NCBI GenBank assembly: GCA_003563895.1
Contig: PWTK01000007.1
Coordinates: forward strand, 1 to 55,086
DNA: 55,086 bases
Direction of reading: 5' to 3'
DNA from: Syntrophomonadaceae bacterium
Lineage (GTDB): Bacteria; Bacillota; Dethiobacteria; DTU022; UBA8154
Position numbers and translations under genes: made by a program
Shown here: positions 37,165-51,760 of the stretch, piece after piece
Layout: every line of letters begins with the position of its first letter
Position numbering within the stretch: position 1 is the stretch's first letter
Notes under the pieces: generated by a model
Seen by the model: the letters and a program-made list of their open reading frames with translations, nothing else
What the model was told of the DNA's origin: nothing
Databases searched by the model: none

Positions 37165-38484
37165 TCATCTGCCCAGCTGCTTCATTGCCAGCTCGGGCAG
37201 GTAGAGGGCGATCTCCGGAAAAGCGAACAGCAGGGCGATACACAGAAAAATGGCGATTAAAAAAGGCCAGATGCCCCTGAAGATTTGCATGACATCGATG
37301 TCTTTGGCCACGCCGGCCACCACGTAGACGTTGGCGCCCACCGGCGGGGTGATCACGCCCATCCCCAGCGCCAAGACCACGATCACGCCGAACCAGATGG
37401 GGTCATAGCCCAGCGCCAAAGCCACGGGGTAAAAAATAGGAGTCGTCAACAGGATCAGGGCCAGGGCGTCGATAAAGAGGCCCAGAATCAGGTAAACAAT
37501 GAGAATGACCACCAGGACGACCGTGGGGGGGAAGGGGGCTTCAATGGCCAGGGTGGCTACGGCCGAAGGCAGCCCGGTGATGCCGAGGAAGCGGCCGAAG
37601 ACAGACGCCGTCGCGGTCAAAAGCATGATCATCGCCGAAAGCCGCACGGCATCGTCCAGCGAGCGGATAAATCCCTTCCAGCTCAGCGACCGCCGAACCA
37701 GCGAAACCAGCAGGGTGGCCGCCGCCCCAACTGCCCCCGCTTCCGTGGGGGTCACAATGCCGAAAAACAGCCCTCCCATAACGGCGATAAAAATGACAAC
37801 AACCTCCATACCTCCGGTAAAAAGGGCCTTTACCTTCTCCCGCGTCGGCACACTCTCCCCCCGGGGTGCGGAAGTGGGGTCGCGCAGCACCTGCAGGTAC
37901 GCCATCAGCATGAACAATCCCATGAGAAGCAGGCCGGGAATAATGCCGGCCAGGAAAAGCATGCGGATGGATTCCCCGGTTGAAATCCCGTAAAGAATGA
38001 AGATGACACTGGGAGGGATCATCACGCCCAGGATGGCCGCCGCCGCGATGGAAGCCGTGGAAAAGGAGCGGCTGTATTGGTAGCGGTTCATCTCGGGCAG
38101 GGCCACGGCGCTCATGGTGGCCGCGGTGGCCGTGGTGGAGCCGCAAATGGCCCCGAAAGCCGTGCAGGCCCCGATGGTGGCGATGGAGAGCCCTCCCCGC
38201 AGGCTGCCCACCAGCTTGTAGGTGGAATCGTATATCTTGGAGCTGAGGCCCGAGTGGTAAGCGATAAAACCCATCCAGACAAACAGGGGCACCACGATCA
38301 GCGGATAGTTTGCGAAGGTGCTGTAAATGGTTTGGGAGGTCAGGGAGAGCGCCGCGGCGGGCGACCTCACGTAAGCATAGCCCCCCATGCCCACAACCAG
38401 CATGACAAAAGCTACCGGCATACGCAGAAAGAGCAGCACAAAAAGAAAAAACGTAGATATAAGGGCTACGTGCAGGGGCGTCAA
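37165..38484 (-). CDS. dctM: TRAP transporter large permease
   Basis: GAICGSTTAT, IPPS, TPTEA, ITPPVG. Confidence 0.92.
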   Translation of the reverse strand: MTPLHVALISTFFLFVLLFLRMPVAFVMLVVGMGGYAYVRSPAAALSLTSQTIYSTFANYPLIVVPLFVWMGFIAYHSGLSSKIYDSTYKLVGSLRGGLSIATIGACTAFGAICGSTTATAATMSAVALPEMNRYQYSRSFSTASIAAAAILGVMIPPSVIFILYGISTGESIRMLFLAGIIPGLLLMGLFMLMAYLQVLRDPTSAPRGESVPTREKVKALFTGGMEVVVIFIAVMGGLFFGIVTPTEAGAVGAAATLLVSLVRRSLSWKGFIRSLDDAVRLSAMIMLLTATASVFGRFLGITGLPSAVATLAIEAPFPPTVVLVVILIVYLILGLFIDALALILLTTPIFYPVALALGYDPIWFGVIVVLALGMGVITPPVGANVYVVAGVAKDIDVMQIFRGIWPFLIAIFLCIALLFAFPEIALYLPELAMKQLGR

Positions 38485-38978
38485 CGAAGCTCACTTCCTT
38501 TTGCTGCAATAATGACCGCTTTGATAAAATCCCTCAAAATGATCAGGGAGAGCATGATAAACCCGACCCCCACCAAATAAATAAAGGGCGCGATGGGGAT
38601 TTCCAGGTGGCCGGTGGTGTACCCCCTGGCCAGCATGCTTTCGCCGAGTTGCAGCATCTGGTAGGATAATACCGCCATAAAAATGAGCGCGAGCAGGCCG
38701 GTTATGCTGTCCACCAGGGCCTGTTTCCGCCGGGAAAAGCGGTTCACCAGTACGCCCACGGCGATATGGCCCTTTCTTTGATGGCAGTAGGCGATCCCCA
38801 GGCCCAGCAGGATGGACCCCAGTATTTCCACCATTTCCACCGTCCCGGGGATCGGTTTCCAGGGGATGCGGATCAAAACATTTGCCACGATCAGCGCCAT
38901 CACCGTCACCAGGGCCACCTGGGCCACCTGGGAGACGCGCCAGGAAAGCGCTTCCATGATCTGATCCAGATGTTTCAT
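38481..38978 (-). CDS. dctQ: TRAP transporter small permease
   Basis: 4 TM, GHIAV; between dctP and dctM. Confidence 0.9.
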   Translation of the reverse strand: MKHLDQIMEALSWRVSQVAQVALVTVMALIVANVLIRIPWKPIPGTVEMVEILGSILLGLGIAYCHQRKGHIAVGVLVNRFSRRKQALVDSITGLLALIFMAVLSYQMLQLGESMLARGYTTGHLEIPIAPFIYLVGVGFIMLSLIILRDFIKAVIIAAKGSELR

Positions 38979-39235
38979 AAACTGCGGCCTCCTACAAAAT
39001 TAAAATCGCCGTGCAGCGCAAGCCCGGGAAATGCCTTTCTCTTTTTTATCTGACTTTCGGCGGCGATGCCGCGAGCGGCCGGGCCAGCGCTGCTCCGTTC
39101 TGGCAACACAAGTGAAAGTTGGGTCTTTTAAAAAGAATAGAAAGGGCAACCGCAGCAAGGACTTGCGGAAGCCCTTCAGTTAACGGTATTTGATTGAATT
39201 GAGGGGAAAGATTTTTGCCCCTTTACGGGCCGGTT

Positions 39236-40342
39236 TTAATTGAAGTAATCCCCGTATTCCTCGGAATACTTGCGGTCCAGCTCGCGCACCAGGTCCATGA
39301 TTTCTTCACCGGGCAATCCTTCCTCGTTAGCCCCCTGTATCCAGTTTTCCTGCACGGGCTCAATGGCCTGCAGCCACCTCTCCTCTTCTTCGGGATCCAG
39401 CTCGATCACTTCGTGGCCGTACTCCTGGACCGCGTATTCCTGGCCCGCTTCTGTATGCTCTGTCCGCAGCACGCCGTACTCGTAAACGAAATTCTGGCTT
39501 ACCTCGTCAATGATTTGCTGCACTTCATCGGGCAGAGCATGCCAGGTATCCCAGTTCATTATCTTCATGAACACGATGTTGTAAAGGTAAGGGGTCTTGG
39601 TGATGTAGCTGGTGACTTCGGCCAGCCGGAACCCCTTCAGGGTGTCAGTAGGGGCGAGAATGCCCCTCACGATGCCCTGCTCCAAATTAAGATACGAATC
39701 CGACATGGGCATGGTCGTGGGGGTGGCGCCCAGCTCCTCTACTACAGGCACCGAGCCGCCGGCAACCCGGATTTCCATGCCGGCGAGATCCTCCAGGGAG
39801 CGCACCGGTTCGGTGGTAATGATATCGCCAGGCCCGGTAGCCCAGAAGTGAAGCACCTTCACCTCTTCATACTCCTGCTGCAGCAGGTCGTAGGTTTCAT
39901 AAGCCTCCTGCATGACCATGGAAGAAACCAGGGCATTGTCGTTTTCCAGGCCCGGCAGCTCAAAGGCCGCCGTTACGGGAAACAGGCCCGGCGTGTAAGA
40001 GGGGCAGGTGGTGCCGATATCGGCCGCCCCATGGGCCACTCCATCGAATATCTCCGTTGCTCCCAGCAGTGCTTGACCGGGATGAAAGCTGAATTCGATT
40101 TGATGGGGCGTTTCTGCTTCCACCCGCTCCTTAATCTCATCCGCCCACGCCCAATGCCCTTCAGCCACCTGGAAATCTTCACTCGGCCAGAAGGTAGCTA
40201 AGCTGAGCTCAATCATTTCTCCTTCCACCACTTCATCATTGGGATCTTCCACCGGTTCTTCCGGTTCCTCCGGAGGCGCACAACCCGCAAACATTGCAGC
40301 CATGGCCAGTAGCAGCAGGACTGCAATCCACCTTTTTTTCAC
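39236..40342 (-). CDS. dctP: TRAP substrate-binding lipoprotein
   Basis: Lipobox FAGC, DLAGMEIR, LGATPT; likely GTG start at 40342. Confidence 0.9.
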   Translation of the reverse strand: MKKRWIAVLLLLAMAAMFAGCAPPEEPEEPVEDPNDEVVEGEMIELSLATFWPSEDFQVAEGHWAWADEIKERVEAETPHQIEFSFHPGQALLGATEIFDGVAHGAADIGTTCPSYTPGLFPVTAAFELPGLENDNALVSSMVMQEAYETYDLLQQEYEEVKVLHFWATGPGDIITTEPVRSLEDLAGMEIRVAGGSVPVVEELGATPTTMPMSDSYLNLEQGIVRGILAPTDTLKGFRLAEVTSYITKTPYLYNIVFMKIMNWDTWHALPDEVQQIIDEVSQNFVYEYGVLRTEHTEAGQEYAVQEYGHEVIELDPEEEERWLQAIEPVQENWIQGANEEGLPGEEIMDLVRELDRKYSEEYGDYFN

Positions 40343-41086
40343 GTACAATTCCCCCTCCTTTAAATTTTAAGAGAAATACAAAAACTGCACCCGCCTTTTT
40401 CGATTCCTTCTCTCTCCGCAGGGTTGTGCCTCCGCCGCGTTTCACATCGATGTGATTTGCCCGGGGCTCGGCTGCAGCCAGGGACGCTTATGTGCCCGCT
40501 GCTTGCGCTGGTGGCTTTGCACGCCAGGCCGGTGCAAAAAAGTTGTGGGGGCGGCCTTACCTCCTGCCAGGCAAAGAAACTGCTTGGCAGAGAAGCAAAT
40601 TGCGCCTCACTGCACCTCCGAATTATGCAATGTTGACAGTCCCGCGCTGCCCGACAAGCAAACACACACTGCCCCTTTGCGGCATGGCGGCACAAAACCC
40701 CTGCTGAAAAAATCCCGCCGAAAATGCAGGTCTTAAGATATAAATAATTTCACTATACTTTGCAAAAAACCTTCTTTTCCCGAAAAAAAAAGCAAAAAGT
40801 AAGAGGAGCAAAAAGGGACGGTTCCCGACTTGCCTTTGTGGAATTTTCTGTCGGGCAAATTAGGGAAGGTTTTTGGCTTACCTGTTCATAGCTTCCAAAC
40901 AAAAAAGGACAAAAAAGGTGAAAAAAGCGGATTTTCACTTCTTTTTTTCATCGGGCCGGATTTTTTGAGAAAATGCAGCCAGAATTATTGACAAGTTGGA
41001 GTATATGATATAATTGACGTAATTGGCCTATCAGCGCAGACAGTACATGCCTTTTGACAATCCAATTGTTCGGAGTGTTTATTCAT

Positions 41087-41719
41087 ATGATCCAAAAAAT
41101 CATCTTTGATTTCGATGGAACCCTTGCTGACACACGGGATCTCTTCTTGGAGACGCTTGCACAGATATCGAGAAAGTACGGGCTGCTCGAAATCTCCTCG
41201 GAAGAAGCCGAGCAAATGTCCAGGCTCCCCATCAGGGAAAGGCTCAAGCAAATGGGTGTCCCTTTGAGCAAGCTGCCGCTGATGTACCGCGAGTCCCGGC
41301 AAATATTCGAGGGCCTTGAAATCATGCCCGAACCTTATCCGGCCATCAAAGAGCTGGTTTATGCCCTGAAGCATCGGGGTTATCTGCTCTACATCGTCTC
41401 ATCCAACACGTATGACTTCATCAAGCGTTTTCTCGAGGCCAACGAGCTGGAAGTTTTTGAACAGATTTTTTCTTCCAGGGGTCTTTTCGGGAAACACCGC
41501 GACATCAAAAAGCTGCTCAGAAAAACTGGGCTTTCCAGGCAGGAAGTCCTTTACGTGGGAGATGAGCTGCGGGACATCGAAACCTGCCGCCGCATTTCGG
41601 TACCGGTCATCTGCGTAACATGGGGGTTTGATTCCCCCTCCCTGCTGGAGGAAGGCAAGCCCGATTACCTGGTAGAACACCCCCGCGATATCCTGCGCCT
41701 GGTGGAAGATCTCAACTAA
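41087..41719 (+). CDS. HAD-family hydrolase (phosphoglycolate phosphatase-like)
   Basis: IFDFDGTLAD, VSSN, YVGDELRD. Confidence 0.9.
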   Translation: MIQKIIFDFDGTLADTRDLFLETLAQISRKYGLLEISSEEAEQMSRLPIRERLKQMGVPLSKLPLMYRESRQIFEGLEIMPEPYPAIKELVYALKHRGYLLYIVSSNTYDFIKRFLEANELEVFEQIFSSRGLFGKHRDIKKLLRKTGLSRQEVLYVGDELRDIETCRRISVPVICVTWGFDSPSLLEEGKPDYLVEHPRDILRLVEDLN

Positions 41720-42122
41720 CCCCCCCTGAAAAATAACAGCAAGGCAAGAATTGAGGATGCCTTCCCGAAAACAGGGAACTCCCAACCTGGGCATAGCCAG
41801 TCCCAAAATAGTTGAATTTCAAAAAGACCCCTTCTAAACGCAGAAAAAATGAGCCCCCACGAGATCGCTTGAAAATGTTTTGCCATATCAACAGGGGAAT
41901 AAAGAGCTAAGGGCCTGATCTGCACCGGAGCATTGCAAGCCTCCTGAGGTGAGGCACATCTTCCTGGCGCCCTCTTCAGACAAAAACTCCCCGCCATACA
42001 ACTATTGAAGGAAATAAGCGATAAAAAACGAAGTATACATGGGGAAACAATCTTAACCCCCCAAAAGGCGGCCGCATGTTTTCGGTCGGTTTTAAAGCAA
42101 ATATTGTTACGGCAGGGATGAT

Positions 42123-43121
42123 ATGCATAAAAGAGATGTAATGCCGCTTATCAAAGAGACCTGGGAGCTCAGAAAGAAAAAAAACTTCCGCGAAGCGGAG
42201 CTGAAATTGCTGGAGGCGCTGGAGCTTTCCCCCGGGAACCCGCTGGTAGAAGCCAACCTGGCAGAGGTCTACCTGATGCAGGGCAACCTTGACGAAGCGA
42301 GGAAAGCGGCGCTGAAAGCGCTGGAAAAAAATCCTGTCCAGGTTCACGCCCTCACGGCCCTGGGGGTGACCGCCCTTGAGGAAGGGGCGTTGGCCGAGGC
42401 GATCGAAAACCTGCAGCAGGCCCTGGAACGCGCCCCCAACGCTTACCGCGCGGGGCGTCTGGCCAGGGCGTACGAGCTGAACGGCGAAGGGGAAAAGGCG
42501 CTGCAAATCCTGCAGCAGGCCCTGGAAGATCATCCGGGCGACAGATACCTGCTCAAACAGTACAGCGGCCTGAAGAAAAAGGTGCAGGCAAGCGCACCCC
42601 CTGCCGGCGAAACTCTCCCCGGATTTTCGCCCGAGGATGAGACATCCCTGCCGTACGCGGAGCAGATGCGGGAAAAGCTGCGCCGCCTTCCGCCCGAAAA
42701 GGCAGCCGCCCAGCTTCAAAAGACGGTCCGGGTGGGAAAGAGAAGCCAAAACCCCCACCTTCACAGCCTCCTGGGCGACCTCTGGCGCCAAGCGGAAAGG
42801 GACGGGGAAGCCGCCGCCGCCTACCGCAGCGCCCGGGAGCTGGACCCCGAAGACCGCTACTCCCTGGCCCACGAAGCCTTCTGTTACCGTCGACTGGGCA
42901 GGAAAATGGATGCATGGCCCCTGCTGAAACAGCTGCTGCGCCAAAATCCGCGGGACAATGCGGTGAAATCCGCTTTCCTTAAGGACGCGTCAGAGCTGCA
43001 GCGGCAGGCCGAAGCCATCGAATTGTTGGAAGATATTCTGGAAAGCCGCCCCCACTTCCGGGAGCTTTACGGTGCCGTCAAAAAACTGGGCAAGCAAATA
43101 GAGGGGGAAGAGCGTTATTAA
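42123..43121 (+). CDS. Tetratricopeptide-repeat protein
   Basis: Repeated helical TPR patterns (ALELSPGN, ALEKNP, ALEDHPGD, ARELDPED); stop overlaps the next ORF's probable start. Confidence 0.88.
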   Translation: MHKRDVMPLIKETWELRKKKNFREAELKLLEALELSPGNPLVEANLAEVYLMQGNLDEARKAALKALEKNPVQVHALTALGVTALEEGALAEAIENLQQALERAPNAYRAGRLARAYELNGEGEKALQILQQALEDHPGDRYLLKQYSGLKKKVQASAPPAGETLPGFSPEDETSLPYAEQMREKLRRLPPEKAAAQLQKTVRVGKRSQNPHLHSLLGDLWRQAERDGEAAAAYRSARELDPEDRYSLAHEAFCYRRLGRKMDAWPLLKQLLRQNPRDNAVKSAFLKDASELQRQAEAIELLEDILESRPHFRELYGAVKKLGKQIEGEERY

Positions 43122-46100
43122 AAAGATTAAAGACCTCATCGAGGTGCCGCCGGTCCGAACCGTGGTGCGGCTGGCGGACCTTTCCGAGCAGTCTCTGCGC
43201 CGCAGCATGGTCGAAAATTTCATCCTGACGGGAGAAACCTCCTTTGCCCTGGAAAACATCCTGGAAAAGGTGGCCCGCCTGGAAGGACAGGGCTTTTTTG
43301 TGCTGGGCAACTACGGCTCCGGAAAATCCCACCTTCTCAACGTGCTCAGCCTCGTCCTCAGCGAAAAAGAGGCAGGTGACGCCCTCCTTGCATCCGGCAG
43401 CGCCGGGGAGGGCGGAAGCGGAAGTGGGGTCGGAAAAAGTTTTCCACCGCTGCTACGCAGCGCGCAGGGCGTCAAGCCTTTGGTGGTGGAAATCTCGCTG
43501 GTGGAGCACAGCAACCGGGAATACCTGGAACAGATCGTCTTCTCCTCCCTGCGGGCAAAGCTCAAGGAAGAAGTTCCTCCCTCCGGGAGCCGGCCCGAAC
43601 CGCCTCCGCACTGGGGGGAGAGCATGCCCCGCAAGGAATCCTTCCAAGCGCTGCGGGATCTCCTGCGGGAAGGAAAATGGGGAGGGCTGGTGCTCTTGAT
43701 GGACGAGCTCTCCGAGTTTTTGCGCTCCAAGGAAGACTCCCGCAGCTACAACGAAGACGTGCGCTTCCTGCAGTACCTGGGAGAATTTTCCGAAGCCATC
43801 CCCTGCTGGGTGGTGGCGGCCCTCCAGGAAAACATTGAAAACACGGGCAGCCTTTCCGGGGAGCTCCTGCACAAGATCAAGGACCGCTATCCTGCGCGCT
43901 TCAAACTGACGGGAGAGCACGTCAAAGAGATCGTCTCCCGCCGCCTGATCCGCAAAACGGAAAAGGCCCGGGAAACGCTCCCGCAAATATACGAGGAGCT
44001 TCTCCAGGCTTTTGGCGAGCTTCCCTTTTCCGCGCAAGCCTTTTACGATCTTTACCCGGTCCATCCCCAGACGGTGGAGCTGCTGGACGAACTGCGGCCC
44101 TTTTTTTCCCAGCACCGCGGGATCGTGGACTTCATCCACTACCGCTTGGCCGGCGACAGGAGCCGAGGCATCCCGCCTTTCCTGGAAAACCCGCCCGACC
44201 GCTTGCTCACCCCCGATCTCATCTTCGACCACTTCCGCGACCGCATCCGGGAAACGGTGGAAACGAACCCTTACAGCGACCGCGTTTACCGTTACTACGA
44301 GCGCGAAATCGGCCAGATTTTCCCGGATGAAGAAGACGCCGCCGCGGCGCTGCGCATTGTCAAGCTGCTCATCATCGGCACCCTGCCCCCGGCACCCAAG
44401 CACTTCACCGCCGGGGAAGTCACCCGGCTGCTCCTCTACCGCTATACCGACCTGGAAAGCAAGGTCAACTACGACTACGCAGCGGAAATCCTGGAAAAAT
44501 TGCTCTCGCAGGGCGCCTTCGTGGAGGCTGAAAGGGATGAAGACGGCGGCCCCAAGCGCTACCGCATCAACCCCCGGGCCGATACCGGCCCGCTGATCAA
44601 AAAAAAGCTGGAGCAGATCACCGGGGACCTCACCCCCGGCGACTACCGGCCCATCCACCGCCTGCTGCCCTGGCTCGATGAAAACTATCTCCCCCTGCAC
44701 CGGCTGCAGAAAGAGCCCTTCCAGGAAATCGAAATTACCTGGCAGAACACGAAGCGCTGGGGGAAGCTGCTTTTCTGCTCTCCGGCGGAGCTCTCGGCAG
44801 AACGCCTGGAAGCGTACAAGCAGGAGCTGGCGGAAGAAGAAACCGATTTCGTGTTCCTTACGGCGCCCCCTGCCTTTGCCGGCAGCGAAACGGAGGCCGA
44901 AGAAAAACAATTTTTCCAGCTTCTGAAGGGGGAAAAAGACGAGGGCTTCCTCTCCTCCCTGATCCTCTGGCTGCCCCGCAAAATATCCGCCGACGAAGAA
45001 AAAAAGCTGCAGCAGGCCTACGCATACCAGGTACTCTTCCAGGAGTATACCTCCGACAGTAGTCCCTCCGGCCAGCAGGTGAGAGACCAGCTGCAGGGCG
45101 TTTTGGAAGACGAAAGGCGAAAGGTCCGCGAAATCTTTCGCAATCTGTATTTCCAGGGACAGCTGGAAGCGGGAGAAAAAAGCATTACCCCGGAAGCCTT
45201 GGGTTACCTCCACTTTGATGAACTGCTTGCCCGGTGTGCGGCCGAGGCCCTGAAGGTGCGCTTTCCGCGCCACTATGAGATCAGGCCCCAGGGCGAACAG
45301 GTTACCAGCAGCCTCATGCAGCGCACCCTGGATATGCTCTCCTCGCCGCACATCGCCGAGGAGTCCCTGGAAAGGGGGCCCAGGTTCACCATCGAAAACT
45401 ATCTCAAGCCGCTGGGACTGGTCAAAAAAAGGGGGCAGAGCTACGTGCTGGAGATCAACCCCAGGAACTCTCCCCTGGCAGCGGAGTTTTTCGCGCTGGT
45501 GGGCCAGGAGCGGGTGCCCCTGCAGACGGTCTACCGGAAGCTCCGCAAGGGCCCCTTCGGCCTGAGCCAGGAAGGATTCCGGGCCCTGGGCCTGGCTGCC
45601 GTTCTCAGCGGTGCCGCCTCCGCCTACCAGGGCGGAAAGCGACTCCCCCTCTCCAAGATCAACTACTACCGCTTCTGGAATATCGAAGAGGTGGGGCCCG
45701 GTACCCTCATCCGCCCGGAGCTGCAGGGAGTCCTGGCCGATGTACCTTTCCTGCCTCCGAAACTGAAAGCCGCCCCTCTCACCTTTTCCGCCCAGCAGGC
45801 CGCATGGGAGCACGTCATCTCTTTCAAGGAAGAGTGGGAAGAAAAAATCAGGGAGATCACACAGCAACTGAGGCGCCTGGAAGGCTACCGCCTCTTTTCC
45901 CGGATGAACTGGGAAAAGGCCGAAAAGATCCTGGAGCGCTTCGGGGAGTTTCTGGGGGAAATCAAGGTCTCCTATTCCTCCCAGGAAGGCCTGGAGCGCT
46001 TCCTGGCCGCCTTCCAGTCCCGCCCCTTCCTGGCGGAAGACTTTGCAAGGCTGGAAGCGCTGCACGCCTTTTTCAGCGAAGACCTGGGCGAAATCCTGCG

Positions 46101-48504
46101 CCTGGGGCACTATCTGAAGGACCCGCAGCTGCACATCCCCACGGAAGAAGAGCAGTATGGTTCGCTGCTGCAGCACTACCGCCTGCTGCAGGAATTCCTG
46201 GAAGACGAAGCCCTGTTTTTCAACGCGGAATACCGCCAAAAGCTGAAAAAAGAGTTCAAACATTTCCAGGATGAATACATCTCCCGCTACCTCCGGGAAC
46301 ATGCTGCAGCCGTCGGACCGGAGAGCCTGAAGCCATACAGGGATCTCATGGAATCCACCGCCTACCGCCTGCTGGAAGTGCTTGGCGGCATCAATACCCT
46401 GGTGGTGGAAGACGATATCTTCAAGCTCAACCGGCACCTCCAGCCCCTTCTGGCAAGGGAATGCCGGGCCGTCGAAGAGCCCCTGCTGCAGGAACGCCCC
46501 CTCTGTGCCTGCGGCTTCAAGCTGGGCGGCAAGCCCCCCGCGCCGCTGGTTGCCCAGTTGGAGGCCCGCATCTGGTCGGGCATTCGCTCCTACCTGCAGC
46601 TGCTCCAGCAGGAAGAAAACAGGACCAAAATCGAGAGCTACGCCGAACATTTGGAAATGGTGGGCAAGAGGCGGGAAGCGGCTCCCCTTCGCGAGATTTT
46701 GAAAATCTTGCCCGCCGACCCCGATCCCGCGGCCGCACTTTCTCCGCACCTCAGCCAGAAAACCGTCGGACACATCAACCGGGCGCTCACCGGCGATGCC
46801 GTCATCGCCGAGCGATCCCTGGAAACCCTCAGTGAAAAGCTCTCCGGCAGGGTCTTGACACCCGGGCAGTTGAAAGAAATCATCAGCAACTGGCTCACCG
46901 GCAGCGAGGAAAAAGAGCCGGACTACATCCGCATTAAAGAATACCGGGGAGAAAAACAAGCGAGTCCCGAAGCGGCAGATCCCCTGGAACGACCGGGGGA
47001 CCCGCCGCCCGCCGCCGACTACCCAACGCAGGAAACCAGGGCCTTTCTGGAAGGATTCGCCCCCGACCTGCTCCCCCTCTACCGCCAAGCCGGCGAAGAG
47101 CTGCTGCAGGCTGCCCTTTTCCTGGGCTGGCTGCGCTGCCATGAAATCCCCCTCACCCGGGGGTGGGAAGCCCTGCGCACCCTGGCCCAAAACCACCACC
47201 TCTACGAGGACGAACCCTCGGCCGCCGAAAAACTGGCCGCCTTGGGCGAAGCGATGCTGAAAAACGAAACGGAGCTGCCCTCCGAGCGGGTGGAAAAAAT
47301 CGGCGCAAGAATCGAAAAAGTGTTCTCGGGAGCGCAGCTGTTGGAGCTGCAAACTTCCGACCGGCCCGAAAGGGATTACAACTTCGACCGCTTGCTGGAG
47401 AAGCTGCACGAGGAACCTCTTTTCTTCTCCGCTGTCCTGGAGCTGTGCCGCAAACTGGCAGCCCATATCACGGCGGAAGAGATTGAAATCAACGTCAAAG
47501 TCATGAAGGGCGCCCTGGAAGAGGTCAAGAAATCCCTGCTCAGCCACCGTGCCAATGCGGCAGGCGGGGAAGCCCTCCGTGAGAGAAAAAGGCGCTGCCT
47601 GGAGCGCCTGGTTGCCCTCTGCCGCTGCGGCCTTTCACTGCGGGCTTTGGAAAAGGCCCTGCACAACCCCCCGGAAAACGACAAACACTGGGAAGAGCTC
47701 TACCGCCAGATCGCCTGCTTTGAAAAAGAACTTTCCTGCCTGGAAGAGGCCTCCGAAAGGGAGATCTTCCCCGATTACTCCCTCCAGAGGTGGAAGCATT
47801 ACTTCTTCTCCTCCCTTGAACCCCTGCAAGATCAATTCGGCGCCTACTGCCAGAATTCCGGCAGGAAAAACACCCTTTCCAGGCTGCTCCGCGAATACCA
47901 TTCGTGGGTAAGGAAAAGAAAAGACGTTGCGGGCGCCTACCTGATCATACTGGACGGTGCCAGGCTGGATGTTTGGGAGGAACTCCTTTCAAAAATGCAG
48001 GAGGAACTCGACCTGAGGGTGCAAAAAGAGGGGATCAGCTGGGCCCATCAGCCTTCCGTTACAGAAGCGCAGCTGGATCCGCTCCGGGAGGAAGGGCTGC
48101 TGGGCGGCGTGATCAACGCAGAAGAATGGAGCGCACCAGGCCCCTTCTTCGACTCCTCCTCCTTGGAAAACCTTGATAACCGCCGGAACATCCTGAACGC
48201 CTCCGAGAGGAGGCAGGCAGCTCTGCAGGCCGTGAAGTTCAACTTCATCGACGACAAGTTTCACACTTCACGGGACAGCCTGCCCACCCTGGTGGAGGAA
48301 GTTCTGCTGGCCAGCCGGAAAAAACTCTGGCCGCTGCTGGAAGCAATCCCCTCCCAGGCGCTTTTGTTGGTCCTCTCCGACCACGGGTTCAAAAGCAACC
48401 CCCACCATGAAAGCTTCCAGAAAACAGAAAATCCCCGCTACCTGCACGGGGAATGCTCCCTCTTCGAAACCCTGGCGCCCTGGGCGCTGCTGGAAAAACG
48501 ATGA
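43117..48504 (+). CDS. DUF6079/BrxC-like P-loop ATPase fused to a C-terminal PglZ-like (alkaline phosphatase superfamily) domain
   Basis: Walker A GNYGSGKS (43306), Walker B LLMDE (43702), YPVHP, C..CxC Zn-like motif; C-terminal LIILDG, PSVT, NFIDDKFH, SDHG, YLHG..S..E..P. ORF-track start is GTG 43144; the in-frame extension IKKIKDLIEV suggests an ATT start at 43117. Confidence 0.8.
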   Translation: MKKIKDLIEVPPVRTVVRLADLSEQSLRRSMVENFILTGETSFALENILEKVARLEGQGFFVLGNYGSGKSHLLNVLSLVLSEKEAGDALLASGSAGEGGSGSGVGKSFPPLLRSAQGVKPLVVEISLVEHSNREYLEQIVFSSLRAKLKEEVPPSGSRPEPPPHWGESMPRKESFQALRDLLREGKWGGLVLLMDELSEFLRSKEDSRSYNEDVRFLQYLGEFSEAIPCWVVAALQENIENTGSLSGELLHKIKDRYPARFKLTGEHVKEIVSRRLIRKTEKARETLPQIYEELLQAFGELPFSAQAFYDLYPVHPQTVELLDELRPFFSQHRGIVDFIHYRLAGDRSRGIPPFLENPPDRLLTPDLIFDHFRDRIRETVETNPYSDRVYRYYEREIGQIFPDEEDAAAALRIVKLLIIGTLPPAPKHFTAGEVTRLLLYRYTDLESKVNYDYAAEILEKLLSQGAFVEAERDEDGGPKRYRINPRADTGPLIKKKLEQITGDLTPGDYRPIHRLLPWLDENYLPLHRLQKEPFQEIEITWQNTKRWGKLLFCSPAELSAERLEAYKQELAEEETDFVFLTAPPAFAGSETEAEEKQFFQLLKGEKDEGFLSSLILWLPRKISADEEKKLQQAYAYQVLFQEYTSDSSPSGQQVRDQLQGVLEDERRKVREIFRNLYFQGQLEAGEKSITPEALGYLHFDELLARCAAEALKVRFPRHYEIRPQGEQVTSSLMQRTLDMLSSPHIAEESLERGPRFTIENYLKPLGLVKKRGQSYVLEINPRNSPLAAEFFALVGQERVPLQTVYRKLRKGPFGLSQEGFRALGLAAVLSGAASAYQGGKRLPLSKINYYRFWNIEEVGPGTLIRPELQGVLADVPFLPPKLKAAPLTFSAQQAAWEHVISFKEEWEEKIREITQQLRRLEGYRLFSRMNWEKAEKILERFGEFLGEIKVSYSSQEGLERFLAAFQSRPFLAEDFARLEALHAFFSEDLGEILRLGHYLKDPQLHIPTEEEQYGSLLQHYRLLQEFLEDEALFFNAEYRQKLKKEFKHFQDEYISRYLREHAAAVGPESLKPYRDLMESTAYRLLEVLGGINTLVVEDDIFKLNRHLQPLLARECRAVEEPLLQERPLCACGFKLGGKPPAPLVAQLEARIWSGIRSYLQLLQQEENRTKIESYAEHLEMVGKRREAAPLREILKILPADPDPAAALSPHLSQKTVGHINRALTGDAVIAERSLETLSEKLSGRVLTPGQLKEIISNWLTGSEEKEPDYIRIKEYRGEKQASPEAADPLERPGDPPPAADYPTQETRAFLEGFAPDLLPLYRQAGEELLQAALFLGWLRCHEIPLTRGWEALRTLAQNHHLYEDEPSAAEKLAALGEAMLKNETELPSERVEKIGARIEKVFSGAQLLELQTSDRPERDYNFDRLLEKLHEEPLFFSAVLELCRKLAAHITAEEIEINVKVMKGALEEVKKSLLSHRANAAGGEALRERKRRCLERLVALCRCGLSLRALEKALHNPPENDKHWEELYRQIACFEKELSCLEEASEREIFPDYSLQRWKHYFFSSLEPLQDQFGAYCQNSGRKNTLSRLLREYHSWVRKRKDVAGAYLIILDGARLDVWEELLSKMQEELDLRVQKEGISWAHQPSVTEAQLDPLREEGLLGGVINAEEWSAPGPFFDSSSLENLDNRRNILNASERRQAALQAVKFNFIDDKFHTSRDSLPTLVEEVLLASRKKLWPLLEAIPSQALLLVLSDHGFKSNPHHESFQKTENPRYLHGECSLFETLAPWALLEKR

Positions 48505-48529: not shown

Positions 48530-48916
48530 CTACCAGATCACTTCAATCCGGTATTTGCCCATCTGAGAATCAGCCGATAAAAGCGGCAGGCCTTCTAACT
48601 GAGCCTGGGCAATAATGATCCGATCAAATGGATCCCGGTGAAAATTTGGAAGGGTATGTACATGCAAAGCATGGTTCATCTGGACGGGCAGCAGGGATAT
48701 GGCATTTTTAAACATTTGTTCCAACACAAAAGCTTCCAGATCATCAGGAACCTTCAGCTTGCCGAGCTTCGCTTTAACAGCCATTTCCCACCCGCTGGCC
48801 GCACTTAAATAAAGCGTGTGTTCCCCCTCCTCGATTATTTCGCGAGCCTCAGCAGAGATGAGAGGATCATCGTTTATCCACCACAAAAAAACATGCGTAT
48901 CCAACAAGTATTTCAA
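48530..48916 (-). CDS. vapC: PIN-domain toxin, VapC family
   Basis: YLLDTHVFLW, SGWE, HRDPFDR, LSAD. Confidence 0.92.
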   Translation of the reverse strand: MKYLLDTHVFLWWINDDPLISAEAREIIEEGEHTLYLSAASGWEMAVKAKLGKLKVPDDLEAFVLEQMFKNAISLLPVQMNHALHVHTLPNFHRDPFDRIIIAQAQLEGLPLLSADSQMGKYRIEVIW

Positions 48917-49143
48917 TTTTCAAACTCCCTTAACATTTCCTCCGTCAGGGGATCGTTGAAATCAGGAGAAACAAATATTTTGTTTTTCGCACTGCCCGGG
49001 GCACGCCTGGACGGCACAGCATTATAAGGTACCAGCTTGGCCACGGGCACCCCCGCTTTGGCAATCACCACCTCTTCGCCCGCTTTGACTTTCTTTAAAA
49101 GCTTGGAAAGGTTCGTTTTGGCTTCATGGATATTTACATACAT
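48913..49143 (-). CDS. Phd/YefM-family antitoxin
   Basis: VNIHEAKTNLSKLL...GEEVVIAKAGVPVAKLVP; 4-nt overlap with vapC. Confidence 0.92.
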   Translation of the reverse strand: MYVNIHEAKTNLSKLLKKVKAGEEVVIAKAGVPVAKLVPYNAVPSRRAPGSAKNKIFVSPDFNDPLTEEMLREFEN

Positions 49144-49806: not shown

Positions 49807-51249
49807 TTATTCAACCGGCAACTCCAGCTCCGGAAAACGCTGCCGTATTTCCTCTTCCAACCCCTCGGGTATATATTTTCTGAGCGGCTTTTTTCTCAGC
49901 TGCATGGCCAGCTCTTCCGCCTTCTGCCAGCTTTCCTTGGCGTGAATCACCTTCCAGACCTGGTATTCCCGGCTCAGCTCGATCCGGGACAGGAGGGCGT
50001 GGCGGCGCAGGTGGCGTAAAGTGTGCTTGTGCGAAAGATAGCTCCCGCCGGGCCCCACCTCGGCGATGACATCAACAGCCATGGTTTCGGGGCTCACCTC
50101 GATTCCCCGCAGCGCCCTCAAGCAGCTCCCCACGATATCGTTGTCGATCACAAACTGGGCATAGGAAATGGTCAGCGCCCCGTCCAAAAACCCGAACATC
50201 TGGTGTAAAAAATGCCCGCCGGCGAGAGCCCCCAGCAGGCAGTTGGTAGTCGTCTCGTGGGCGGCTTGGGCATCGGGGAGCTTGGAATCGGCGGCGCCTA
50301 CCGTGAGATAAGCCGGAAGCCGGTAATAGCGGGCCATCTGCGACAGGGCGGCATTCATCAAGCCGGACTCCACGCTGCCGATGAGAAAAGATCCGCTGCG
50401 CATGTCCATGCTGCAGGGCACGGCGCTGTAGAAAACGGGGGTGCCGGGGCTGACCAGCTGGCTCAGCACCACTCCCAGCAGCGCTTCCGCATTTTGCAGC
50501 ACCAGCGTCCCGGCCAGGGTTACGGGCGCGGTGGCCCCGGAGATGGGGGCGGTGGAAACCACCAGGGGCAGCCGGCTGCGCGCCACTTCCACCAGGATTT
50601 CCGCCCGGTCGTCTTCCAGCTTCAAAGGGCTCGTAATGGAAGTGATAAATCCCACAAACGGCCTCCGCTGCAGCGCTTCGAAGCCACCGGCCAAAAGCCC
50701 GGCAAGTTCCACCACGCGCCGCAGCCCGTCCCTGCTGTAAATCCCGCCCATCACGGGCCGACCGGTATTGCAGAGGGCCCGGTAAAAATCATTAATATCC
50801 AGGAAATTGATGTTCACATCGTGGGAGTGGACGGGAATAATGTAAAAATCGACGTGTGCCAGCTTGTCGGCCAGGCGGGCAAAATAAGCGATGTCCCGGG
50901 AGACGGCAGGCCTTCTCCGGTGGCCCTCTTCCATCACATACAGGGCCTTCCCACCTGTGCCGAAATAGACATTGTTTCCACCCAGGTGAAGCTCTTTTCC
51001 TTCCTCCTGCCCGTAATAGGTGAACTCGGAAGGGGCCTGCTTCATACACTGGGAAATAAGCCGGGGGGAGAGATATGCCCTCTTCATGCGGTGATCCACC
51101 AGTACGCCGTTTTCTTCCAGCAGCTGCAACAGAGGGGGGTAGGTCACTTCAAAGCCGACATCCCAGAGGATCCGGACGCTACTTTCATGGACGAGGCCGA
51201 GTTCGTTGTCCGTTAATGTGCGGTAAAAATCGCCTTCCAGGAGTTTCAT
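49807..51249 (-). CDS. MttB-superfamily (trimethylamine methyltransferase family) methyltransferase, non-pyrrolysine
   Basis: ITSPL, GATAPVTLAG...NAE, DMRSG, ADSKLPDAQAAHE, EVGPGGSYL; no in-frame TAG. Start ATG 51249. Confidence 0.9.
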   Translation of the reverse strand: MKLLEGDFYRTLTDNELGLVHESSVRILWDVGFEVTYPPLLQLLEENGVLVDHRMKRAYLSPRLISQCMKQAPSEFTYYGQEEGKELHLGGNNVYFGTGGKALYVMEEGHRRRPAVSRDIAYFARLADKLAHVDFYIIPVHSHDVNINFLDINDFYRALCNTGRPVMGGIYSRDGLRRVVELAGLLAGGFEALQRRPFVGFITSITSPLKLEDDRAEILVEVARSRLPLVVSTAPISGATAPVTLAGTLVLQNAEALLGVVLSQLVSPGTPVFYSAVPCSMDMRSGSFLIGSVESGLMNAALSQMARYYRLPAYLTVGAADSKLPDAQAAHETTTNCLLGALAGGHFLHQMFGFLDGALTISYAQFVIDNDIVGSCLRALRGIEVSPETMAVDVIAEVGPGGSYLSHKHTLRHLRRHALLSRIELSREYQVWKVIHAKESWQKAEELAMQLRKKPLRKYIPEGLEEEIRQRFPELELPVE

Positions 51250-51271
51250 CTCGGTTCTCCCTTCGCGATGC

Positions 51272-51760
51272 TCAGGCTTGTTCCGCCCATTTTTCAAGTA
51301 TTAGCATAATGTCGGCCCGGCTGACGATCCCCCTGAGCTTCCCTTCACTATCCACCACCGGCACCCGGTTAATGGCGCGGCGGTTCATCAACCGCACAAT
51401 ATTCAGCAAAGGGGTGTCTTCCCGAACCGTGAAGGGGTTCATGGTCATGACCTGCCTGGCCGTCACCGCAGCGACGGCCTCAATTACATCCACCCCCCTT
51501 TCTCCGCTCACGTGGGCTGCCTCCTCCTTATCTTCCAGGAGCTTCCCGGGTCCCCGGAGGGGACGCCCCACCACCCAGCGCGTATATTTCAAGACGTCTC
51601 TTTCGGAAATGATGCCGACCACCTTTTCCTCCTCGTCCAGCACCGGCACCCCGCTCACATAATGGCGGTGCAGCACCCTGAGAACTTCCCTGAGCTGGGT
51701 GTCAAGCCTGACGCTCACCACCGGGGAAGTCATCACCTTCGAAGCCTTTACGTCCAGCAT
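51272..51760 (-). CDS. CBS-domain pair protein
   Basis: VMTSPVV...SGVPVLD..GIISERD and VMT...RVPVVD..GIVSRAD. Confidence 0.9.
   Translation of the reverse strand: MLDVKASKVMTSPVVSVRLDTQLREVLRVLHRHYVSGVPVLDEEEKVVGIISERDVLKYTRWVVGRPLRGPGKLLEDKEEAAHVSGERGVDVIEAVAAVTARQVMTMNPFTVREDTPLLNIVRLMNRRAINRVPVVDSEGKLRGIVSRADIMLILEKWAEQA

Follow-up and report, generated by a model that had tools for sequence, protein, structure and literature searches.

The window analysed here is a 55,086-nucleotide stretch of contig PWTK01000007.1 from a Syntrophomonadaceae bacterium (assembly GCA_003563895.1). It carries, on the forward strand, two coupled genes in which a tetratricopeptide repeat (TPR) protein precedes a much larger protein, and the latter joins, in one polypeptide, an ATPase of the BrxC/DUF6079 type to a PglZ module. 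BrxC and PglZ belong to the bacteriophage exclusion (BREX) systems. The features of the locus are collected in Table 1, and residues of the fusion protein are counted from GTG 43144 throughout. The preliminary description of this DNA had recognized the two-gene operon and had quoted a series of motifs in the large protein; the operon and every one of these motifs are present, and their catalytic residues are invariant in 58 sequences.

Table 1. Coordinates of the gene pair and of the regions within the BrxC-PglZ fusion gene
Feature	Position	Strand	Basis
TPR gene, 332 amino acids (aa), cytoplasmic product, conserved upstream partner	42123..43121	+	open reading frame (ORF), Pfam
BrxC-PglZ fusion gene, 1795 aa (from ATT 43117) or 1786 aa (from GTG 43144)	43117..48504	+	ORF, homologues
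ORC/Cdc6-type AAA+ ATPase region of BrxC, residues 1-552	43144..44799	+	Pfam, PADLOC, solved BrxC chains
Middle BrxC region, residues ~553-1264	44800..46935	+	DUF6079 profile, fold model
Pro/Ala/Glu-rich linker from BrxC part to PglZ part, residues ~1265-1295	46936..47028	+	predicted local distance difference test (pLDDT), alignments
Helical region of PglZ module, residues ~1296-1594	47029..47925	+	VIA-align, PDB profile match
Compact PglZ catalytic core (alkaline-phosphatase superfamily), residues ~1595-1786	47926..48501	+	invariance, Foldseek

The BrxC-PglZ fusion protein and its TPR partner

The N-terminal ~1,250 residues of the large protein are, as judged from sequence, a BrxC/DUF6079 AAA+ ATPase, in agreement with the preliminary description. 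The Pfam family DUF6079 (PF19557) matches residues 3-552 on profile positions 11-546 with a score of 156 bits (cut-off 23; E 1.2e-45). The PADLOC BrxC model PDLC02482 also matches the N-terminus (E 2e-36), and a 19-sequence profile finds the solved BrxC chains 9zn5_A, 9zll_A and 9zdx_C with E values of 7e-14 to 6e-12. In a search of the source genome, DUF6079 profile positions 2-394 and 871-1137 were both matched, the latter at 45811-46611 (residues ~890-1156), and in the homologue P0050 the match extends to profile position 1223 of 1238. The matches in the window protein and in P0050 together indicate that the BrxC part is full length at ~1,250 residues. The Walker A motif GNYGSGKS lies at residue 55 (43306-43329) and the Walker B motif LLMDE at residue 184 (43693-43707), with G55, G58-H63, D187 and E188 invariant in the 19 sequences; the further motifs YPVHP and PLCACGF are found at residues 304 and 1119.

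For the middle region, a fold model of residues 540-1260 (pLDDT 88.9) contains mixed alpha/beta units, a winged-helix-like unit and long helices. The winged-helix-like unit (model residues 232-315) aligns to winged-helix domains with Z 6-7.7. A structural search with residues 540-1260 returned no solved structure at Z 8, but only winged-helix and coiled-coil pieces at Z 6-7.7, and full-length BrxC was not among the matches. According to a preprint, BrxC is built from the AAA+ domain, followed by a winged helix-turn-helix, an alpha+beta domain, a second winged helix-turn-helix and a long coiled coil with an apical subdomain (10.1101/2025.10.09.681413). Four residues of the window protein, H1053, C1107, C1121 and C1123, are invariant in 58 sequences (site 46300-46512, with the Cys codons at 46462-46512). 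In the fold model they are placed in and beside the loop that joins the long helices, and a zinc knot could form there, at the outer end of the helical arm of BrxC.

The linker that follows has pLDDT values below 50 (model residues 39-64) and shows no consensus in the alignments. The C-terminal side was modelled with AlphaFold as the last 560 residues, model residue i being protein residue i+1226, with a pLDDT of 87.9 and a predicted template modelling score of 0.83. The best Foldseek matches of this model are PorX (E 3.5e-9) and BREX PglZ (E 6e-8), with a Foldseek probability of 1.00, and MCR-1/EptA, NPP and alkaline phosphatases come next. Alignment to PorX with VIA-align gave Z 22.0 and a root-mean-square deviation of 3.1 Å over 266 residues, placing model residues 258-560 on PorX 122-517. 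The BREX PglZ chain 9zn5_B aligned with Z 15.8 over 421 residues (model 70-560 on PglZ 166-753), the chain 9nv3_C with Z 12.1, and NPP/autotaxin with Z 9-10. Identity to the solved BREX proteins in the structural alignments is 12-14%. A profile of 58 C-terminal sequences likewise matched PorX (E 5.5e-10) and the Acinetobacter BREX PglZ (E 2.6e-6), the PDB profile match to PorX starting at PorX residue 129-133.

The catalytic residues of this module are intact. D1604, R1607, D1609, P1637, T1640, D1703, H1707, D1746, H1747, G1748, Y1766, H1768, G1769 and P1779 are invariant in the 58 C-terminal sequences, which come from many phyla. By alignment the catalytic ligands are D1604, D1609, T1640 at the nucleophile position, D1703, H1707, D1746, H1747 and H1768, and they are carried by the motifs LIILDG at residue 1600 (nucleotide 47941), PSVT at 1637, NFIDDKFH at 1700, SDHG at 1745 (nucleotide 48376) and YLHG at 1766 (nucleotide 48439). 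T1640 is aligned with the threonine in the PTAT motif of PorX, and PorX T271V/T272A mutants have been deposited as phosphatase-null (entries 8thp and 7pvk). The fold model and the catalytic residues identify the C-terminal module as a member of the PglZ family, although it scores under the Pfam threshold.

The alkaline-phosphatase/PglZ fold proposed in the preliminary description for a ~200-aa C-terminal domain is thus the fold obtained in the model. The ~200-aa extent holds for the catalytic core; the whole module is larger, about 490 residues (1296-1786), because it includes a helical region. This region is the counterpart of the central and connector helices of BREX PglZ, and its last ~110 residues are the counterpart of the PorX helical bundle. 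Salmonella PglZ is described as having a BrxB-binding segment at residues 1-96, the metal site within residues 304-748 and a beta-barrel at residues 749-867 (PMC12205998). By structural alignment and comparison with this scheme, the PglZ module of the window has neither the BrxB-binding N-domain nor the C-terminal beta-sandwich/beta-barrel. Some homologues also carry precomputed matches to the Pfam families PF26383, PF26387 and PF27141.

The upstream protein consists of TPR repeats with no other domain found by Pfam (TPR_19, E 9e-23, plus many other TPR families), arranged as two TPR blocks with a linker between them; the alignment of its family (A4) holds 51 sequences with a mean column identity of 29%. 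Its conservation was surveyed by scanning one genome per species with the large-protein alignment, which yielded 318 tblastn-confirmed relatives. These may include ordinary BrxC genes, since the search patterns were N-terminal. The best 80 relatives were taken as loci L001-L080 and combined with the window into 81 sources, in which the TPR gene was sought by ORF calling, BLAST and a hidden Markov model of the TPR family. After setting aside 11 sources with less than 900 bp upstream, 70 had room for the gene, and 61 of these 70 carry, no more than 1.5 kb upstream and in the same orientation, a homologous TPR gene of ~330 aa, which in most cases abuts or overlaps the large gene. The companion gene named in the preliminary description is accordingly a conserved one. 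All-against-all clustering of the 810 ORFs called in the window and the 80 loci gave only two conserved clusters, the large gene (79 sources) and the TPR gene (54 sources by BLAST), the next largest covering 7 loci of close relatives. When the TPR protein (A4) was co-folded with the last 560 residues of the large protein (A3), in a run made without controls, the score was 0.00, a value that speaks neither for nor against binding.

The beginning of the large gene bears on how the two genes are coupled. Homologues of the fusion, which at full length are 1,709-1,864 aa and 28-54% identical, open with MKxxDLIxVPPVRTV. In the window, KKIKDLIEVPPVRTV is encoded in frame 5' of GTG 43144, and this stretch contains no ATG, GTG or TTG; the only in-frame start candidates before GTG 43144 are ATT 43117, ATT 43126 and ATC 43138, all alternative starts of translation table 11. 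With ATT 43117 as the start, the overlap with the TPR stop codon amounts to 5 nt and a GGGGGA stretch lies just ahead, and the DUF6079 match in the profile search of the source genome begins at 43123. The large gene therefore probably starts, on this reading of the sequence, at ATT 43117 rather than at GTG 43144, which would make the coupling of the two genes tighter than the preliminary description had it. The lack of a canonical start (43099-43146) is due to a rare ATT start or else to an error in the assembly.

On the opposite strand, an ORF of 1364 aa (43453-47547, -) is codon-aligned with the large gene. It was rejected as a gene and is regarded as a by-product of codon usage: TTA, CTA and TCA account for 4 of the 1786 codons in the sense gene, as against about 0.5% in neighbouring genes, and no similarly long antisense ORF occurs in the relatives, where the longest one elsewhere has 669 aa (L043).

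Distribution and surroundings of the gene pair

The distribution of the fusion is patchy. Within the same family, the C-terminal profile was found in 4 of 32 other genomes, or 2 of 19 when only high-quality genomes are counted, and in 5 of 12 genera, the genus of the window included. The fusion occurs under at least 13 phylum labels, mostly Bacillota and other non-Bacteroidota metagenome-assembled genomes. Against 1.84 billion cluster representatives, the C-terminal profile matched 1291 proteins with E<=1e-3, 567 with E<=1e-10 and 159 with E<=1e-30. Among the 150 matches listed, 73 are at least 1,500 aa long, and all 73 have a Walker A motif within their first 150 residues. The other 77 are fragments together with a distinct family of standalone PglZ proteins of ~720-950 aa, which match the C-terminal profile with E values of 1e-36 to 1e-51 and pass the Pfam PglZ cut-off. 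The only names given to the fusion family in the sequence sources are 'DUF6079 family protein' and 'hypothetical protein'.

A FastTree phylogeny of 62 full-length proteins places the window protein among sequences labelled Syntrophomonadaceae, and contains a deep clade of 12 rows that holds most of the members lacking the TPR gene. L059 and L063 are 79% identical in nucleotide sequence up to the ends of the gene and not beyond them; the only other pair of this kind is L055/L063, where the contig is short. Toxin-antitoxin (TA) genes occur within the pair at two loci of the Marinimicrobia type, an MNT/HepT pair (L076, 6779-7605) and a PIN fragment (L072, 7569-7841) both lying between the TPR gene and the large gene.

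The preliminary description had found no methyltransferase or other BREX gene next to the pair, and the wider survey agrees with it on this point. A Pfam scan covered 134 of the 267 cluster representatives of neighbouring ORFs, namely those of at least 180 aa nearest to the large gene (within about 2.5 kb). No DNA methyltransferase and no BREX family is present among the listed families with at least 2 of the 134 representatives (the best 25 of 185 families). The source assembly (1.82 Mb, 114 contigs, completeness 79.6%) yielded no second PglZ, no second DUF6079, no Eco57I-type (PglX-type) methyltransferase above the cut-off and no BrxB (PF08747). BrxA (PF08849) was not matched either, a negative that is uninformative since the BrxA profile matched none of the control genomes. 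The homologues do not sit in complete BREX loci, and only the large gene and the TPR gene are conserved.

Relation to known systems and interpretation

In type I BREX, BrxB is reported to link the AAA+ domain of BrxC to the N-domain of PglZ within an ATP-dependent B:C:Z core (PMC13326643), and PglZ is described as a metal-dependent nuclease (PMC12205998). The system of the window resembles type I BREX in pairing a BrxC/DUF6079 AAA+ ATPase with a PglZ that has central helices and a metal-dependent phosphatase/nuclease core. It differs in that BrxC and PglZ form one polypeptide, that the TPR protein is the sole conserved partner, and that no PglX, BrxA, BrxB or BrxL was found near the fusion among neighbour families with at least two members. 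Type 4 BREX and the Ssp system, in which BrxC/SspC goes with a PAPS reductase, share with it a BrxC-type ATPase without an N6-adenine methyltransferase, and PADLOC SspC weakly matches the N-terminus (E 3.5e-8). In contrast, type 4 BREX involves phosphorothioation of DNA, BrxP, DUF4007 and BrxL (10.1101/2025.10.09.681413), none of which is conserved at the fusion loci.

The HerA/FtsK-centred BREX-related system of Rakesh and Krishnan also has a DUF6079 ATPase and a trimmed PglZ outside canonical BREX. However, it is described there as having seven separate components, including a STAND NTPase, DUF4007, HerA/FtsK, GNAT and TGT, and its PglZ keeps an N-terminal inactive helicase domain, whereas the system in the window has two genes, a fused protein and a TPR partner. 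PorX, a response regulator of type IX secretion, is the best match to the helical bundle and the core, and the position of the Thr nucleophile and the metal ligands agree between the two. In the window protein, however, Pfam finds no receiver domain, the structural alignment starts at PorX residue 118-126, past the receiver domain, the core has about 190 residues instead of about 310, and the module is fused to BrxC. The closest non-fused relatives of the C-terminal module are standalone PglZ-domain proteins of ~720 aa from candidate division KSB1, which match its profile with E values of 1e-33 to 1e-51, pass the Pfam PglZ cut-off and are named PglZ domain-containing proteins in the sources. 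They differ in being separate proteins with about 200 extra N-terminal residues; a standalone query of this kind (P0200) had no match in 401 genomes of the window's phylum.

The fusion architecture is not described in the literature searched on DUF6079, PglZ and BrxC. The broadest BREX survey, in the available text of both its versions, mentions neither TPR, tetratricopeptide nor a BrxC-PglZ fusion, although its supplementary tables could still list one. The conserved pairing of a TPR protein with a BrxC-PglZ fusion looks undescribed. The fusion system is BREX-derived, yet it is not filed as a BREX type, because no modification gene (PglX-type methyltransferase or PAPS reductase) is conserved in the locus.

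The analysis establishes what the domains are, that the catalytic residues are intact, that the two genes are a conserved pair, that BREX partners are lacking and that the distribution is patchy. We consider it slightly more probable than the contrary that the pair constitutes a BREX-derived, modification-independent two-gene conflict system, in which the fusion takes the place of the BrxB bridge, with the TPR protein as a regulator or sensor. That it is a free-standing BREX descendant, with the BrxC-PglZ protein and a TPR sensor restricting phages or plasmids in the absence of methyltransferase, BrxA, BrxB and BrxL, is a tentative proposal to which we give somewhat less than an even chance. 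The accessory-type behaviour of the gene counts toward the conflict-system reading, namely its patchy distribution, the L059/L063 similarity that ends at the gene ends, and the TA modules by or in the pair (in the window, L072 and L076).

In such a conflict system, the BrxC part would provide the P-loop, winged-helix and alpha+beta DNA-binding domains, long helices and a probable Zn-binding His/Cys3 knot, and the flexible linker would tether it to a trimmed PglZ consisting of the central helices and a metal-dependent phosphodiesterase/nuclease core. The covalent link may do the job that the BrxB bridge does in type I BREX, as suggested by a PglZ that is without exactly the BrxB-binding N-domain and is tethered to the BrxC C-terminus. 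We infer that the TPR protein binds the fusion, because its gene appears together with the fusion arrangement, and most likely gates it, either holding it inactive or sensing an invader-derived protein. The proposal of the preliminary description, that the TPR protein senses a phage protein and thereby turns the enzyme on, is pure conjecture. ATP-dependent assembly of BrxC on DNA would bring the PglZ active site to nucleic acid, which PglZ, going by its published nuclease activity, may nick or cleave. Without a modification enzyme, self/non-self discrimination would not be methylation-based but would depend on a trigger or on a feature of foreign DNA, and the outcome in the presumed defence role could be abortive.

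Several observations weigh against this reading. The NCBIfam BREX_BrxC equivalog NF033441 scores 68.3 bits (E 4.2e-19), below its 400-bit cut-off, which makes the protein a distant member of the BrxC family and not a type I BrxC equivalog. The Pfam PglZ family (PF08665) gives 14.1 bits for the window protein, 16.8 for the C-terminal 560 aa and 18.8 in the genome search; the window protein does not reach the 25-bit cut-off, and some homologues carry a precomputed PF08665 match. The core is also closer to PorX, a signalling phosphodiesterase, than to BREX PglZ. Nine of the 70 sources have no TPR homologue (L037, L044, L058, L059, L063, L064, L068, L075 and L078). The neighbours of such TPR-less loci include GatB, an alpha/beta hydrolase, a PAS/GAF protein and a CHASE2-CHAT protein, and the upstream gene in L078 encodes a thioredoxin-TPR protein unrelated to the TPR family. 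At two loci, L035 (6883-11873) and L079 (322-4443), a BrxC-like protein of 1,350-1,370 aa stops short of the PglZ module, and neither locus has a PglZ ORF of its own; L035 retains the TPR gene. The nine TPR-less sources and the two PglZ-less loci imply that neither the TPR gene nor the PglZ module is obligatory.

The surroundings add to these points. The commonest Pfam families among the 134 neighbour representatives are metabolic (Lactamase_B 4, ADH 3, prismane, aminotransferase). PADLOC matches to the same representatives were scattered, each family having one or two members, and were for the most part generic, such as cysteine desulfurases and helicases. The loci do not lie in defence islands. 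Most of their neighbours are housekeeping genes, and the TA pair adjacent in the window is not conserved, so that the defence-island setting which the preliminary description saw in this pair is not borne out. No relative was found in plasmid, phage or IMG/VR viral collections, the plasmid and phage sets being drawn mainly from cultured hosts. Two apparent cross-phylum transfers, the near-identical pairs L073/L075 and L039/L043, were dropped because their flanks are shared as well, so that each pair is probably the same lineage under different bin labels.

A housekeeping or stress-related DNA-processing machine, acting on DNA ends or structures with the TPR protein as an adaptor, is an alternative that on our analysis appears unlikely. 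With its long-helix ATPase, Zn knot and tethered metallo-phosphodiesterase, the protein would then work by analogy with Rad50-Mre11 and SbcCD. The mostly housekeeping neighbours, the failure to find phage, plasmid or viral copies and the invariant His/Cys3 residues between long helices suit such a machine. A gene found in 4 of 32 same-family genomes, or in 2 of 19 of high quality, and in scattered phyla is not, however, distributed like a core function; the families of both domains are not known outside BREX-type conflict systems and PorX, and the middle region has no match at Z >=8 to SMC/Rad50. PorX itself is a phosphodiesterase on cyclic and linear oligonucleotides, according to the preprint (10.1101/2025.10.09.681413), and the fusion may by analogy be a nucleotide-signal phosphodiesterase or regulator, whose PorX-like core hydrolyses cyclic or linear oligonucleotides under the control of the ATPase and the TPR protein without cutting DNA. 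The ranking of the matches agrees with this, PorX being nearest both in structure (Z 22.0 versus 15.8 for BREX PglZ) and by profile (E 5.5e-10 versus 2.6e-6), with NPP-type phosphodiesterases as the next structural neighbours at Z 9-10. However, Z for BREX PglZ is depressed by the hybrid, low-resolution nature of its entries, and the alignment to BREX PglZ is the longer one (421 versus 266 residues) and covers central helices that PorX lacks. With no receiver domain or cyclase partner found and with the core fused to a DNA-binding BrxC scaffold, this signalling role seems improbable as well.

A direct dependence on BREX is less probable still. The locus could be a remnant of BREX, or could work in trans with BREX genes, a methyltransferase among them, at other places in the genome, given that a distant partner might be unassembled in a genome 79.6% complete and that the BrxA negative is uninformative. 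Against this stands the two-gene unit itself, which recurs without BREX genes in dozens of loci and many phyla with intact frames and invariant catalytic residues; this conserved unit is the reason for rejecting a remnant. Moreover, no PglX-type match above the cut-off, no BrxB and no second PglZ or BrxC was found in the source genome, and the PglZ part is without a BrxB-binding domain.

Restriction and methylation in BREX share most of the six proteins, and the mechanism by which phages are stopped is unresolved. With a natural two-gene form, the activation of PglZ and its cleavage target could be studied in a minimal setting. If the reading as a free-standing BREX descendant is true, the restriction half of BREX exists as a unit of two genes and can be rebuilt and taken apart by itself, with a covalent tether mimicking the BrxB-bridged B:C:Z complex and the TPR protein supplying the trigger. 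The family would then join the catalogue of candidate immune systems with at least 73 clusters at 50% identity that have the full fusion, from many anaerobe phyla. If it is not immune, it would show the BREX core put to use in some other transaction of DNA or nucleotides, likewise a novelty.

Other features around the gene pair

Convergent with the large gene and starting 26 nt past its end is a TA pair (48530-49143, -) encoding a PIN-domain toxin of 128 aa and an antitoxin of the Phd/YefM family of 76 aa; the two genes overlap by 4 nt, and a promoter-like site is located at 49190-49162. Directly upstream of the TPR gene there are three small ORFs of 129, 135 and 93 aa (40985-41997, -) with no Pfam or NCBIfam match, and this stretch is lower in GC (0.50 versus 0.59). 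At L064 (4161-7483), a sister of the TPR-bearing L047, two other genes stand upstream in place of the TPR gene, one for a CHASE2-CHAT protease-like protein and the other a 298-aa ORF that Pfam does not match.

Farther downstream in the window, a full-length methyltransferase of the MttB family (49807-51297, -) contains no in-frame stop and scores 390 bits against the 525-bit cut-off of the trimethylamine equivalog; on these two grounds its sequence is probably that of a non-pyrrolysine member. On the other side, the gene pair is flanked by a DctPQM TRAP transporter operon (37165-40348, -).

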